IMG/VR virus record: IMGVR_UViG_2706794662_000011 | Origin: a virus | Taxonomy: Duplodnaviria > Heunggongvirae > Uroviricota > Caudoviricetes | Reading direction: 5' to 3' (one strand) | Length of the DNA stretch: 10,220 nt | Shown: piece after piece, positions 1 through 10,220 of the stretch | How positions within the stretch are numbered: position 1 is the first letter of the stretch | Layout of the letters: each line of letters opens with the position of its first letter | Made by a program: the position numbers and the translations under genes | The notes under the pieces: generated by a model | Told to the model about the DNA's origin: nothing | The model's input: only the letters and a program-made list of their open reading frames with translations | Databases searched by the model: none

Positions 1-72
1 GGGAAAAATATCATCAGATGGCTGCTTAAAAAAAGAACAAATGGTAGTGTCCGCTATTGCCAGTACACCTCA
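1..72. repeat. Left copy of a 72-bp perfect terminal inverted repeat; its partner is 10149..10220
   Basis: The reverse complement of 10149..10220 is identical to 1..72 by direct comparison. The sequences diverge immediately inside (tccatcacc versus gttagtcag). Confidence 0.9.
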
Positions 73-271
73 TCCATCACCGAAAAAAATTGGCTTTTAC
101 ACCATTGGCGATAAAAGCATTTACCTGTATGACCTACGCCGCATGGATGAAATCATGGAGGCTCTTGATAATCGTTCGTCGATGGATTGGTGTGTTGCTG
201 TTCATGATATGAATGCAGGGTTTGATGAAAAGATTTTGTTCCCCTCATCAGTTGAAAGCACTGCGGGTTAA
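41..271 (+). CDS. Hypothetical protein, 76 aa from the first ATG; the reading frame stays open to the window edge, so the true start may lie upstream
   Basis: ORF from the track; no in-frame stop between position 2 and 41. Stop TAA at 269..271 is followed by AGGAG and the ATG at 282, which suggests translational coupling. The N-terminus is encoded inside the terminal inverted repeat. Confidence 0.4.
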   Translation: MVVSAIASTPHPSPKKIGFYTIGDKSIYLYDLRRMDEIMEALDNRSSMDWCVAVHDMNAGFDEKILFPSSVESTAG

Positions 272-281
272 GGAGTAACAC

Positions 282-449
282 ATGACCACTATTACCAAAG
301 AACGTATTGAATTGTTCATTAAAAACCCGCTTGAAAACGGGCTTACCCGTGGTGAACAAATGGAACTGGCACGGATTGCGCTGGCATCGCTGGAAGCAGA
401 GCCGGTTGTGTTCTGGTTTGAAAAATATCAAGAAGGGGCTACGGCATGA
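282..449 (+). CDS. Small hypothetical protein, 55 aa ([55 protein letters not shown])
   Basis: Below the ORF-track size cutoff, translated by hand. AGGAG lies 6 nt upstream. Its stop overlaps the next start (ATGA at 446..449). Shares the motif IAL-SL-AEP with the next ORF. Confidence 0.45.
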
Positions 450-790
450 CGACTTTTACCAGAGAGCAGTTAATAGCTCACGCAGAGGAGACTATTGAAG
501 CACAGAGACTGTGCATACCGGGCACAATCGACCATGACATCATCCGCACATATAAGATGGATATTGCTGTTCTGGAAATCGCACTGGTATCGCTGGCAGC
601 AGAGCCAGCCGGTAAATTGCATGAATACAAACCAGTGGGATATCAGCGTCTGGTCGATGAGTTAACCATGCTGGTAAAGCAGTTAACCTGGCAACTGAGA
701 AAAGCGAAGCCAGACTGCAAATTACCGGATAAGGCGATGAGTTATCTGGAGCGGAACGGACTGATAAGCGTGGAGGATATTTTACGATGA
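446..790 (+). CDS. Hypothetical prophage protein, 114 aa, paralogous to the preceding small ORF
   Basis: ORF from the track. ATGA overlap with the upstream ORF and with the downstream 27-aa ORF. Shared motifs are MTT-T-E and EIAL-SLAAEP. Confidence 0.5.
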
Positions 791-870
791 CCTGGCCTGA
801 AGCATTAACAACGGTAGGAATTGCGATGGCGGTGGCGCTGGTGGTGTATTCGATTTGCCGCTGGGGATAA
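787..870 (+). CDS. Candidate 27-aa hydrophobic membrane peptide ([27 protein letters not shown])
   Basis: ATG at 787 overlaps the stop of the upstream ORF (ATGA). One predicted transmembrane-like hydrophobic stretch. Hand translation, too short for the ORF track. Confidence 0.25.
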
Positions 871-911
871 AAACGGTTTGCGGGAAAAGGAGAGTTAAGT
901 AGAATTGCAGC

Positions 912-1081
912 GGGTGCTTGAGGCTATCTGTCTCAGGCATGAACACCAAAAGGCAGATAGAGAAAAGCCCCAGTTAACATTACGCGTCCGGCAAGACGCT
1001 TAACATTAATCTGAGGCTCAATCTATGAACGGCAAATCTAGGTTAGCCTCTTACGTGCCGAAAGGCAAGGAGAAGCAGGCT
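912..1081 (+). promoter_or_regulatory. hok mRNA 5' leader: a 5' element complementary to the 3' fold-back element, plus the mok-like start region that Sok would target
   Basis: gggtgcttgagg at 912..923 is complementary to cctcaatgcaccc at 1287..1299, which is the long-range 5'-3' pairing typical of hok-family mRNAs. The leader resembles the plasmid R1 hok leader (gcttgaggct and the aggagaag-N-ATGAA start region). Confidence 0.5.
955..1045 (-). ncRNA. Putative Sok-like antisense RNA; coordinates are approximate
   Basis: Inferred from the hok/sok family layout, where the antisense RNA covers the mok-like start region (in-frame ATG at 1025). Neither the promoter nor the 3' end was located. Confidence 0.3.
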
Positions 1082-1237
1082 ATGAAGCAGCAAAAGGCGA
1101 TGTTAATCGCCCTGATCGTCATCTGTTTAACCGTCATAGTGACGGCACTGGTAACGAGGAAAGACCTCTGCGAGGTACGAATTCGAACCGGCCAGACGGA
1201 GGTCGCTGTCTTCACAGCTTACGAACCTGAGGAGTAA
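1082..1237 (+). CDS. hokD: Hok/Gef family type I toxin, 51 aa (MKQQKAMLIALIVICLTVIVTALVTRKDLCEVRIRTGQTEVAVFTAYEPEE). An in-frame upstream ATG at 1025 would give a 70-aa mok-like extension.
   Basis: The sequence matches my recollection of HokD/RelF: a transmembrane helix followed by the conserved C-E-hydrophobic-R motif. The flanking mRNA has hok-type leader and 3' elements. Confidence 0.85.
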   Translation: MKQQKAMLIALIVICLTVIVTALVTRKDLCEVRIRTGQTEVAVFTAYEPEE

Positions 1238-1305
1238 GAGACCAGGCGGGGGAGAAATCCCTCGCCACCTCTGATGGGTCAGGCATCCTCAATGCACCCA
1301 CACTT

Positions 1306-1333
1306 AACCCGCTTCGGCGGGTTTTTGTTTTTA
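1306..1333 (+). terminator. Intrinsic terminator at the 3' end of the hok mRNA
   Basis: Stem aacccgc, loop ttcg, stem gcgggtt, followed by tttttgttttt. Confidence 0.65.
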
Positions 1334-1457
1334 TTTTCAACGCGTTTGAAGTTTTAGATGGTGCCGGAATAGAATCAAAAATACTTAAGTAGCGCGCAGG
1401 GAGAAGAGGGATGGACCCCGAACAGGGGAGTGCTATTTATCTGGAAGGATTCTGTTG

Positions 1458-1718
1458 ATGAAAATCGAAGAATTACGTGAAATTTTTAGTGAAGATGGCC
1501 TCTATACTGTGCGCGTTGAGAATGGCGCTATTGTCAGCCACTGCCGTATTAAATGTTTACAGTCTCAACAAAGGAAGAGTGGAGCTGCGTTAATTCATTT
1601 TGTGGATGGGCTTGTGACGGATGGTTTTATTTCGCGTGCAAATGAATTTGTCACATCGTTGCCGTCTCTGAAAGAAGCTGGGATTAAGGCTGGTTTTTCT
1701 GCTTTTGAAGATGAGTGA
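1458..1718 (+). CDS. Small hypothetical protein, 86 aa, likely Rem-like by position (hokD, rem, ydfU, Q order as in the Qin prophage)
   Basis: ORF from the track with the ATG at 1458 preferred over TTG at 1455. GGAAGGA lies 8 nt upstream. Assignment is by synteny only. Confidence 0.5.
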   Translation: MKIEELREIFSEDGLYTVRVENGAIVSHCRIKCLQSQQRKSGAALIHFVDGLVTDGFISRANEFVTSLPSLKEAGIKAGFSAFEDE

Positions 1719-1784
1719 ATTCATCTACAATTCAGCGCAGGGCTGAACCCCTGTTGAGTAACACTGTGCCACCGGAGAAAGCCG

Positions 1785-9073: not shown

Positions 9074-9158
9074 AAAGTGAGCCAGCCAAATGGAAGGTAT
9101 CGTTAAACTCACCGGTAGTGTCAGTGGGTCGTCTGAGATGCCTGCATGAGTTATCAGA

Positions 9159-9188
9159 GCCATCAGTACTTAACTGGTGGCTTTTTTT
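9159..9188 (+). terminator. Intrinsic terminator after the esterase gene
   Basis: Stem gccatcagt, loop actta, stem actggtggc (one G-U pair), followed by ttttttt. Confidence 0.5.
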
Positions 9189-9223
9189 ATTGTTGTCAGC
9201 TTCCGGATAACGGGAGACGGGGT

Positions 9224-9439
9224 ATGTACCAGATGGAAAAAATCACAACAGGTGTGTCATACACCACGTCAGCGGTGGGAACGGGCTACTGGTTCCTGCA
9301 GTTGCTGGACAGGGTTTCCCCGTCTCAGTGGGCGGCAATAGGCGTGCTGGGGAGTCTGCTGTTTGGGCTGCTGACATATCTGACTAACCTGTATTTCAAA
9401 ATCAGAGAGGACCGTCGTAAGGCTGCACGGGGAGAGTAA
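9224..9439 (+). CDS. S: S21-type pinholin (class II holin), 71 aa, with a dual-start motif (MYQMEK)
   Basis: Matches my recollection of phage 21 / Stx-phage S: [54 protein letters not shown]. The ORF-track start at 9146 is rejected because a terminator lies inside that extension. Confidence 0.85.
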
Positions 9440-9443
9440 TTCA

Positions 9444-9758
9444 ATGACTCAAAACTATGAACTGATTGTGAAAGGGATCCGCAATTTTGAGAATAAAGTT
9501 ACGGTAACTTTAGCGTTACGGGACAAAAAACGCTTTGACGGTGAAATTTTTGACCTGGACATCTCGCTGGACCGTGTTGAAGGTGCCGCGCTGGAGTTTT
9601 ATGAGGCAGCAGCCAGAAGGAGCATCAGACAGGTCTTCTTGGATGTTGCTGCCGGGTTATGTGAAGGGGACGAGCTGTTGCCAGAAACGCGCCCCTGTTC
9701 AGAGGCGCGGTATACCATAAAAATTAACAGTTCTGATAACTCGATTACGGGTTGTTAG
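9444..9758 (+). CDS. Hypothetical 104-aa protein between holin and endolysin; a YdfR-like position as in the Qin prophage
   Basis: ORF from the track. GGAGAG lies 8 nt upstream of the ATG. Assignment is by position only. Confidence 0.5.
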   Translation: MTQNYELIVKGIRNFENKVTVTLALRDKKRFDGEIFDLDISLDRVEGAALEFYEAAARRSIRQVFLDVAAGLCEGDELLPETRPCSEARYTIKINSSDNSITGC

Positions 9759-9813
9759 CTTTTTGCAGTTGGCTTTCCAGTATCTTTCATTGGTAGCATC
9801 CTGATAAATATCC

Positions 9814-9984
9814 ATGAGCGCAAAAATCAAATACGGCCTGTCAGCTGCTGTTCTGGCGCTGATTGCAAAATGGCATCTGAATCGATCGCAGTTTGGCATT
9901 CGAATCGATCATGATTTGGCATCCATCTCCGATCACAGTTTGGCATCACAATCGATCACGATTTGGCATACTTCCGATCATTGA
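9814..9984 (+). pseudogene. R: Truncated SAR-endolysin R: only the first 18 codons (MSAKIKYGLSAAVLALIA) look like endolysin; the frame then runs through a repeat array to a stop at 9982..9984
   Basis: The N-terminus matches the signal-anchor-release segment of pinholin-partner endolysins. From about 9868 the translation (KWHLNRSQFGIRIDHDLASISDHSLASQSITIWHTSDH) reflects DNA repeats, not an enzyme. No muramidase domain and no Rz/Rz1 follow. Confidence 0.5.
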
Positions 9985-9990
9985 TTGGAA
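9868..9990. repeat. Array of five tandem direct repeats, period 23-24 bp, consensus TTTGGCAT-N6-(A/C)(T/C)CGATCA-N3, each with one GATC; a sixth degenerate unit follows
   Basis: Units start at 9868, 9891, 9914, 9938 and 9961. They are contiguous with no spacers. The array starts exactly where endolysin similarity ends. Confidence 0.85.
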
Positions 9991-10028
9991 TTCGCCAGTC
10001 ACTCCGGGAATTAACTCTTTTCACCACA

Positions 10029-10060
10029 GTCTCCATTGCCGTGTTTAAACCAGTGGAGAC
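10029..10060. promoter_or_regulatory. Near-perfect inverted repeat gtctccattg-N12-cagtggagac, just upstream of a small basic ORF
   Basis: Read directly; 9 of 10 arm positions are complementary. The right arm overlaps the RBS GGAGA for the ATG at 10065. Confidence 0.35.
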
Positions 10061-10064
10061 GTCA

Positions 10065-10151
10065 ATGTCCAAAAAGAGAAAATCCAGGAGCACTATGGAA
10101 ACTTGTTTTAAGATCCTTCAGCTCAAGTTCGATAAGAAGCTGACTAACTGA
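10065..10151 (+). CDS. Candidate 28-aa basic peptide (MSKKRKSRSTMETCFKILQLKFDKKLTN); its stop codon is the first 3 nt of the right terminal repeat
   Basis: GGAGA lies 7 nt upstream of the ATG. Very short and unsupported by any match. The longer TTG-initiated version from 9963 starts inside the repeat array. Confidence 0.2.
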   Translation: MSKKRKSRSTMETCFKILQLKFDKKLTN

Positions 10152-10220
10152 GGTGTACTGGCAATAGCGGACACTACCATTTGTTCTTTTTTTAAGCAGC
10201 CATCTGATGATATTTTTCCC
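10149..10220. repeat. Right copy of the 72-bp perfect terminal inverted repeat
   Basis: Exact reverse complement of 1..72. Confidence 0.9.

Follow-up and report, generated by a model that had tools for sequence, protein, structure and literature searches.

Opposite IS600 copies almost certainly explain the 72-nt inverted repeat that ends a Shigella sonnei prophage scaffold

RESULTS

The window, that is, the whole stretch of 10,220 nucleotides analyzed here, begins and ends with a 72-base inverted repeat that we are nearly certain is an ordinary assembly boundary effect, namely, a draft contig ending inside two opposite IS600 copies. The repeat is no new mobile or invertible element. We found no evidence contradicting this explanation. 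A first-pass annotation of this DNA had listed three options, and the third, a boundary falling in inverted copies of a repeat as a draft-assembly effect, is the right one; as it had also considered, a multicopy repeat terminates this short draft contig at either end.

The window is byte-identical to the whole NCBI WGS record CWST01000141.1 of assembly GCA_001254515.1 (10,220 bases). Since it comprises an entire record with N gaps and was not cut from a longer genome sequence, it represents a whole scaffold from a short-read draft assembly of Shigella sonnei, and the two arms of the 72-nt repeat are the physical termini of that scaffold. Apart from the N gaps, the window matches CP026802.1, the sequence of S. 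sonnei ATCC 29930 (PMC9430107), with 100% identity. The lengths of the two N runs differ from those of the true intervals in this strain (Table 1), so the runs represent gap estimates of the scaffolder and not masks. Low-GC stretches at about 4500 to 5500 and 6000 to 6500, as well as the ORFs 4720-5139, 4809-5438 (minus strand), and 6016-6465 (minus strand), were considered as a foreign island and rejected as artefacts of the two N runs.

Positions 1-72 and 10149-10220 are 100% reverse complementary, in agreement with the initial claim of a perfect repeat, and similarity ends at 72/73 and 10148/10149, which confirms that the sequences diverge directly inside both arms. The chance expectation of such pairs in random sequence of equal length is ~2e-36. 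The 72-mer corresponds with 100% identity to positions 1193-1264 of the IS600 copy of E. coli B (L002 2501-2572), the left end of which reads TGAGGTAGCC..., and the RefSeq label over 72-mer matches is "IS3-like element IS600 family transposase." The left stub comprises the 3' end of orfB, for which positions 27-29 form the stop codon, as well as the right terminal inverted repeat, which finishes in ...CCTCA at 72. IS600 is an insertion sequence of the IS3 family that was first described in Shigella sonnei. A search for further copies of the 72-mer located it at 4932 sites across 2665 complete E. coli genomes, with up to 43 copies per genome. IS600 is among the five IS that expanded in all Shigella species, the reference chromosomes of which carry 229 to 348 IS each, and the IS listing of S. 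sonnei 53G includes IS600, IS21, and ISSso4 (Hawkey et al. 2020, PMC7373316).

In complete genomes, the repeat extends past 72 nt to the entire 1264-bp IS600, a continuation that the first-pass annotation had itself counted against its inverted-repeat reading. Complete S. sonnei genomes carry a 10.1-kb prophage remnant between two full-length IS600 copies that lie in inverted orientation with their right ends inward. The left copy occupies 8769-10032 in L014 to L023, and the right copy occupies 10336-11599 in L024 to L032, which include S. sonnei ATCC 29930 (L029). The 1264-bp copies at both junctions show 99.4 to 99.6% identity to the reference IS600, are >99% identical to each other, and have the TGAGGT...ACCTCA ends of the element; the window differs from IS600 proper in holding merely 72 nt of each copy. 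Gene calls at the junctions contain HTH_Tnp_1, HTH_21, and rve domains, and the transposase is encoded in two parts, for which RefSeq notes "programmed frameshift."

At the left junction, IS600 interrupts an 87-codon gene of the lambdoid early region at 72/73. The resulting ORF joins 11 IS600-derived codons (MVVSAIASTPH), starting from an ATG at 41 within the IS600 terminal repeat, to the last 65 codons of that gene. The native gene starts upstream in intact prophages with a different 22-codon N terminus; in E. coli ERL03-1416 (L013 1437-1700), it begins MATLTKKERAWLNELQEVLDRYPSPKK... and shares the reading frame of window 73-271. The proposal of an ancestral context on the left and a displaced duplicate on the right is therefore wrong, as each of the two copies represents an IS600 right end and the ORF is a fusion. 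The exact pattern of the left junction had no match in metagenome_contigs or in genome_contigs, which has one genome for each species, and the 72/73 junction was absent from complete E. coli genomes, where no place matched window 1-300 over 80% or more of its length. A match to E. coli O121 starting from position 1 was rejected, since it joined a nearby IS600 copy to a prophage match.

The right junction is nested, with IS600 inserted in ISSso4 and ISSso4 inserted in the endolysin gene. The match to E. coli 042 stops 52 nt into the annotated lysozyme gene (L033 12975-13508). The ISSso4 part shows full identity to the initial 285 nt of the element, including its end repeats and the start of istA, and differs in being truncated after 285 nt by IS600, which cuts at 10148. 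The corresponding reference interval (L003 3501-3785) lies just upstream of and extends into istA, annotated "IS21-like element ISSso4 family transposase"; the first 28 istA codons occupy 10065-10148 (N terminus, MSKKRKSRSTMETCFKILQLKFDKKLTN). Multiple terminal direct repeats with a spacing of 23 to 47 nt span 9860-9974. We considered these ~23-nt-spaced repeats as iterons of a replication origin and rejected this idea because they belong to the left end of ISSso4 as its terminal repeats. The remainder of ISSso4 did not adjoin the other side of this IS600 copy in any of the genomes examined.

The description of the window as a nin-to-lysis segment holds, with Pfam matches to Hok, DUF968, RusA, antiterminator Q, DNA methylase, SASA esterase, P21-type holin, and DUF1327 (Table 1). 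The two small ORFs between the fusion ORF and hok/sok were without a Pfam match. The sok Rfam model lies at 912-1087 within the hok/sok locus, and positions 2065 to 4322 are collinear with prophages of E. coli 042 and O121. The methyltransferase gene has 352 codons when complete, according to full-length calls in complete genomes, and its 5' part is hidden by the first N gap. Two tRNA-Arg genes that come after the tRNA in E. coli 042 and O121 fall in the interval hidden by the second gap, the content of which was read from L029.

Table 1. Features of the 10,220-nt window
Feature	Position(s)	Strand	Evidence or remark
IS600 (IS3 family), last 72 nt	1..72	+	72/72 identity to E. coli B IS600 copy
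Fusion ORF, 76 codons	41..271	+	IS600 terminal repeat plus interrupted phage gene
Two small early-region ORFs, hypothetical	282-449, 446-790	+	ORF list; hypothetical proteins in E. coli 042
hok/sok type I toxin-antitoxin	912..1237	+	Rfam RF01794, 112 bits; Pfam HOK_GEF, E = 3e-23; hok ORF ends at 1237
DUF968/HNH-like protein	2065-3123	+	Pfam
RusA Holliday-junction resolvase	3124-3504	+	Pfam
Late antiterminator Q	3501-4322	+	Pfam
N run, scaffold gap	4877-5136	.	260 N; true length, 292 nt in S. sonnei ATCC 29930
N6/N4 DNA methyltransferase, 3' part	5137..5921	+	Pfam N6_N4_Mtase
tRNA, CAT anticodon	5962..6037	+	ARAGORN, Rfam tRNA; RefSeq homologue is tRNA-Ile
N run, scaffold gap	6079-6356	.	278 N; true length, 245 nt in S. 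sonnei ATCC 29930
Sialate O-acetylesterase-like protein	7220-9073	+	Pfam; source-record gene calls
P21-type holin	9224-9439	+	Pfam; source-record gene calls
YdfR/DUF1327 protein	9444-9758	+	Pfam; source-record gene calls
Phage lysozyme (endolysin) gene, first 50 nt	9814..9863	+	Cut by ISSso4; translation MSAKIKYGLSAAVLAL
ISSso4 (IS21 family), left end, first 285 nt	9864..10148	+	285/285 identity to L003 3501-3785
Second IS600 copy, last 72 nt	10149..10220	-	Opposite orientation, right end inward; scaffold end cuts the rest

The equal length of the two stubs would follow from the way in which short reads are assembled. A de Bruijn assembler would collapse the many near-identical IS600 copies of a Shigella genome into one node, so that the contig of a unique segment would reach just k-1 bases into IS600 at either side. 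With both sides entering the same IS600 end in opposite orientation, two equal and perfectly complementary termini of 72 nt would be produced. The identity of the 72-mer, the coincidence of window and record, the full-length copies, and the nested insertions are observed; the assembler mechanics, a Velvet-type assembly with scaffolding and k = 73, we infer from the symmetry of the stubs and from general assembler behavior. One published high-throughput pipeline runs Velvet with k at 66 to 90% of the read length and then introduces N gaps through SSPACE scaffolding (PMC5320598); k = 73 would fit 100-nt reads under this pipeline.

Other assemblies of the locus also break in IS600. Of the eight IMG/VR contigs with the left junction, six run 32, 37, 47, 51, 107, or 260 nt into that IS600 copy before they stop, and the whole contig L004 (IMG/VR; 6236 bp; same locus) begins and ends with symmetric IS600 stubs of 107 nt. 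The junction-specific fusion protein was on contigs of 2 to 10 kb in 599 of 795 blocks of public assemblies, and it also occurred in 83 blocks with contigs of >1 Mb. The window thus resembles known repeat-induced breaks of de Bruijn contigs in having equal stubs of a multicopy repeat at both ends of a complete contig and in sharing the terminating IS, with other stub lengths, with other assemblies of the locus. We noted no difference from such breaks; the inverted orientation reproduces the way in which the two IS copies truly lie.

We then compared the 3-bp flanks of the IS600 copies in complete genomes. The left copy is flanked by TTT and TCC, and the right copy is flanked by GGC or AAT and by GTT. 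A third copy, present in some strains only, has GGA on both sides, which is the 3-bp duplication expected for IS600. In contrast to this third copy, neither of the copies that bound the window has a target-site duplication. Nor is there a duplication around the pair, for which the first-pass annotation had suggested looking: read on one strand, the left flank is TTT and the right flank is GCC (window-like strains) or ATT (others). The loss of target duplications at both flanking copies indicates later IS-mediated deletion or recombination. A neighboring inverted segment of 1 kb carries a second TCC at its far end, which suggests that TCC was formerly duplicated around the left copy. The outer flanks differ between strains, with two variants on the left and two on the right, showing that the IS600 copies at this locus took part in rearrangements; deletions, rather than movement, account for the variants of the right flank. 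In most of the 19 S. sonnei chromosome places, the prophage remnant has the same neighbors, namely, ompW to its left and either tail genes or trpA to its right. The outer flanks were rearranged in a few of these places, and the gene order of the segment was native in all 19.

DISCUSSION

We considered whether the 10-kb segment functions as a unit together with the two inverted IS600 copies, either as a composite transposon or as an invertible module. The segment is truly bracketed by two full-length, inverted copies with >99% identity, such an arrangement is a substrate for RecA-dependent inversion, and the strain-variable outer flanks attest to IS600 rearrangement at the locus. Nevertheless, we hold this reading to be very unlikely. 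Neither the pair nor either flanking copy has a 3-bp duplication. The swapped pattern that an inversion would leave, in which the left pre-flank equals the right post-flank, was absent as well (TTT versus GTT and TCC versus GGC/AAT). In all places examined, the native lambdoid gene order is kept, and so is the orientation with respect to the tail genes or the prophage end on the trpA side, and the right-hand flank lay beside the left copy in none of the 10 places found with the left-junction ORF. Like composite transposons such as Tn10 and Tn5, the segment lies between two inverted copies of one IS; it differs from them in the lack of a target duplication around the unit, its single chromosomal location, and a cargo collinear with the surrounding prophage. 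In addition, both inward ends are right ends, so the outer ends of such a unit would both be left ends. Transposition as a whole unit is largely refuted by these results.

The same evidence leaves little room for the more specific idea that the IS600 pair makes the 10-kb segment with Q, hok, esterase, and holin a cassette that is inverted by recombination in living S. sonnei populations. If this were true, flipping would couple the cassette to, or uncouple it from, the transcription of the neighboring prophage. We consider such a cassette highly improbable: the 19 genomic places examined contained no inversion isomer and showed a single orientation relative to the tail-gene or trpA side, a result for finished genomes that leaves low-frequency inversion within cultures a slight possibility. 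With neither duplications nor an inversion isomer in the 19 places, the options of an invertible or transposable module and of an inverted-duplication junction raised by the first-pass annotation found no support.

The latter option, an inverted-duplication junction formed by prophage recombination with original coding sequence on the left and a displaced duplicate on the right, took its appeal from ORF 41-271, which starts in the left copy and runs into phage sequence. Its probability is negligible, since the 72-mer is IS600 and not phage sequence, the ORF is an IS/phage fusion of a native gene with a different 22-codon N terminus, and a full-length IS600, inserted in ISSso4, likewise ends in the right copy. 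Equally, there is next to no chance that these perfect, terminal, and inverted repeats around phage-like genes are true inverted terminal repeats belonging to a viral genome, be it small and linear or complete, since the sequence is embedded in S. sonnei chromosomes of 4.8 to 5.0 Mb, from the ompW side to tail genes or trpA, lacks replication, packaging, and structural genes, and has an endolysin gene destroyed by nested IS insertions.

A scaffold that ends inside two opposite IS600 copies also bears on a biological process, in that the locus exemplifies IS-driven prophage decay in S. sonnei, with the nested IS600-in-ISSso4-in-endolysin insertion and strain-specific IS600 insertions and deletions. 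Such decay is already well described, and the locus is one more example. It agrees with the IS-driven decay of Shigella prophages and genomes (Hawkey et al. 2020, PMC7373316) in its nested IS, the IS600 in an early gene, the IS1 and IS21 nearby, the IS-adjacent deletions, and the strain-variable IS sites, without any difference that we could discern.

For the reading of draft data, terminal inverted repeats on short contigs of IS-rich bacteria such as Shigella are a routine product of opposite IS copies at the contig ends, and rules that take terminal inverted repeats as the mark of a complete viral genome or a transposon misfire on such contigs. The symmetric stubs of L004 provide an example of such ends within IMG/VR itself.

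Identity of the terminal repeats

The inverted repeats that the first-pass annotation placed at the window ends were confirmed. Positions 1-72 match the reverse complement of 10149-10220 perfectly (about 2e-36 such pairs expected by chance), and similarity ends at the inner edge of each arm. Complete E. coli genomes were searched, and the 72-mer was found at 4932 places in 2665 genomes, with at most 43 per genome, on chromosomes and plasmids, where it is annotated as "IS3-like element IS600 family transposase". Comparison with the IS600 copy of E. coli B (1264 bp, starting TGAGGTAGCC... 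and finishing ...CAGTACACCTCA) showed that the 72-mer is the terminal 72 nt of IS600. Thus, both window termini are the same IS600 end, the right one, facing inward from opposite sides.

At the left, phage sequence takes over from IS600 at position 73, which falls within a lambdoid early-region gene of 87 codons. As this gene starts with MATLTKKERAWLNELQEVLDRY before PSPKK... in intact E. coli prophages, ORF 41-271 is a fusion, made of 11 codons from the IS600 end and the last 65 native codons of the phage gene. The proposal that the left context is ancestral and the right copy a displaced duplicate was therefore wrong, since both ends are IS600.

At the right, the start of the lysozyme gene is followed by ISSso4, which the IS600 end interrupts at 10148/10149, revealing a nested insertion: the endolysin gene is interrupted by ISSso4, and ISSso4 by IS600. 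The ISSso4 stretch takes in the terminal direct repeats and runs 28 codons into istA. Direct repeats at 9860-9974 (spacing ∼23 nt, core ...GATCG...TTTGGCAT) were considered as replication-origin iterons and rejected, as the left end of this IS21-family element carries them as its multiple terminal repeats. ORF 9814-9984 (56 codons) joins the first 16 endolysin codons to ISSso4 read-through; 196 blocks of public assemblies carry it as a called gene, making it a widely propagated annotation artefact.

Features of the window and of the segment between the IS ends
Feature	Position	Remark
3' end of orfB and right terminal inverted repeat of IS600	within the 72-mer	orfB stop codon at 27-29
Small early ORFs, hok/sok, DUF968, RusA, Q, DNA methylase, tRNA	between IS ends	
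Two STnc100 matches, SASA-type esterase, P21-type holin, DUF1327	between IS ends	
tRNA, anticodon CAT	5962-6037	Met by ARAGORN; tRNA-Ile by RefSeq on the E. coli 042 and O121 homologue
STnc100 (Rfam sRNA family), two matches	6328-6510 and 6788-6997	∼480 nt apart
Phage lysozyme (endolysin) gene, first 50 nt	9814-9863	
ISSso4 (IS21 family), first 285 nt	9864-10148	100% identity

The window is a complete draft scaffold

The window sequence is identical to the whole of NCBI record CWST01000141.1 (assembly GCA_001254515.1, range 1-10220), the single record returned for the methylase product cut by the first N gap. Outside its N runs (4877-5136, 260 nt; 6079-6356, 278 nt), the window is 100% identical to the chromosome of Shigella sonnei ATCC 29930 (strain name from PMC9430107), in which the intervals measure 292 and 245 nt, respectively. 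As these lengths differ, the N runs are scaffolder gap estimates, a mark of paired short-read assembly. The 292-nt interval corresponds to the 5' part of the methylase gene; in its homologues from E. coli 042 and O121, the 245-nt interval holds two tRNA-Arg genes. The N runs also create false low-GC windows and spurious ORFs extending across the gaps (4720-5139, 4809-5438(-), 4835-5251(-), 6016-6465(-), and 6051-6380(-)).

The junction-specific fusion ORF was found in 795 blocks of public assemblies, most on contigs of 2-10 kb and 83 on contigs >1 Mb. Those above 1 Mb are 4.8-5.0 Mb chromosomes, among them those of S. sonnei ATCC 29930, UKMCC1015, and FORC_011, named from the literature. There, the repeat extends far past 72 nt: each flanking IS600 copy spans the full 1264 bp (99.4-99.6% identity to the reference), and the two are mutually inverted, with right ends inward. 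The "72-bp terminal inverted repeat" is thus a draft contig's truncated view of two full-length, oppositely oriented IS600 copies. The repeated sequence itself is real.

A de Bruijn graph assembler would merge near-identical IS copies into a single node, and a unique segment running into the collapsed repeat would keep k-1 repeat bases per side; with both sides entering the same IS600 end in opposite orientation, the stubs would be equal and complementary. We infer that the exact length of 72 is this k-1 overlap. In support, the stubs are symmetric at both window ends, a whole IMG/VR contig from the same locus (IMGVR_UViG_2734482560_000006, 6236 bp) has symmetric 107-nt IS600 stubs, and six of the eight IMG/VR contigs with the left junction terminate in that IS600 copy, 32, 37, 47, 51, 107, or 260 nt into it. 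One published high-throughput pipeline runs Velvet, setting k to 66-90% of read length, and then scaffolds with SSPACE, which introduces N gaps (PMC5320598). For reads of 100 nt, k = 73 would be suitable, and from the accession style our guess is that this pipeline produced the assembly. IS600 is one of five IS expanded across all Shigella species, whose reference chromosomes carry 229-348 IS each, and the S. sonnei listing includes IS600, IS21, and ISSso4 (PMC7373316). Automatic completeness rules could mistake the IS600 stubs of contigs like the 6236-bp one for inverted terminal repeats of a genome.

The IS600 pair and its flanks

Of the three origins first offered for the repeats, the draft-assembly effect is correct; a mobile or invertible module and an inverted-duplication junction are not supported. 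No target-site duplication was found around the pair, and neither copy has a 3-bp duplication (left, TTT before and TCC after; right, GGC or AAT before and GTT after). The swapped triplets predicted by inversion between two simple insertions were absent at the flanking copies, and, judged against the tail genes or the trpA-side end, the segment keeps the order of the native prophage. When the left-junction ORF was used to look up 10 places, the right-hand flank lay beside the left IS600 in none of them. Low-frequency inversion by homologous recombination between the copies is unlikely, and nothing points to it. Deletions adjacent to IS600, or recombination between IS600 copies, best account for the lost duplications and for outer flanks that vary by strain, which is typical of Shigella prophage decay.

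Two configurations exist among S. sonnei strains. In the window-like one (ATCC 29930, UKMCC1015, others, and one IMG/VR contig), the right IS600 is followed by truncated IS21 and lambda-like tail genes Z, U, V, G, T, H, M, L, and K. The second (FORC_011 and others) has a third IS600 at ∼6687 (∼6685-6689) with a clean GGA/GGA duplication and lacks 1546-1795; its right IS600 directly adjoins tail-fibre-assembly, Rha, and Ash genes, IS1, and trpA, the tail genes being deleted. Draft contigs of such strains should be pieces of ∼6.6 and ∼3.5 kb, in agreement with the contig-length classes of public assemblies.

In S. sonnei CP032523.1, the native segment expected upstream of position 73 lies inverted just outside the left IS600 (locus L015, 6963-8768). 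It comprises part of a DUF977 gene, a DUF4014 gene, and the 87-codon gene up to codon 22, with an IS1 inserted in the segment; ompW-side sequence lies beyond, not the remaining early region. Its far end bears TCC, also present after the IS600 right end (73-75), which looks like a relic of the original TCC target duplication, split by an IS-adjacent inversion. CP045932.1 and IMG/VR contig 2869953405_000008 (8618-10847) have a different outer flank of the left IS600, where hypothetical genes share ∼90% identity with certain E. coli prophage regions, a sign that IS600 has mediated a further rearrangement in some strains.

Between the IS ends, the content is ordinary lambdoid/Stx-phage-like genes. 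The tRNA-Ile label is consistent with the ileZ-argN-argO cluster of Stx-like phages, whose Ile2-type tRNA is lysidine-modified. The STnc100 pair, the first match partly masked by an N gap, has the tRNA region on one side and the esterase gene on the other, and each match finishes in a CCCTCTCCGGAGGGG hairpin with a T-rich stretch after it.
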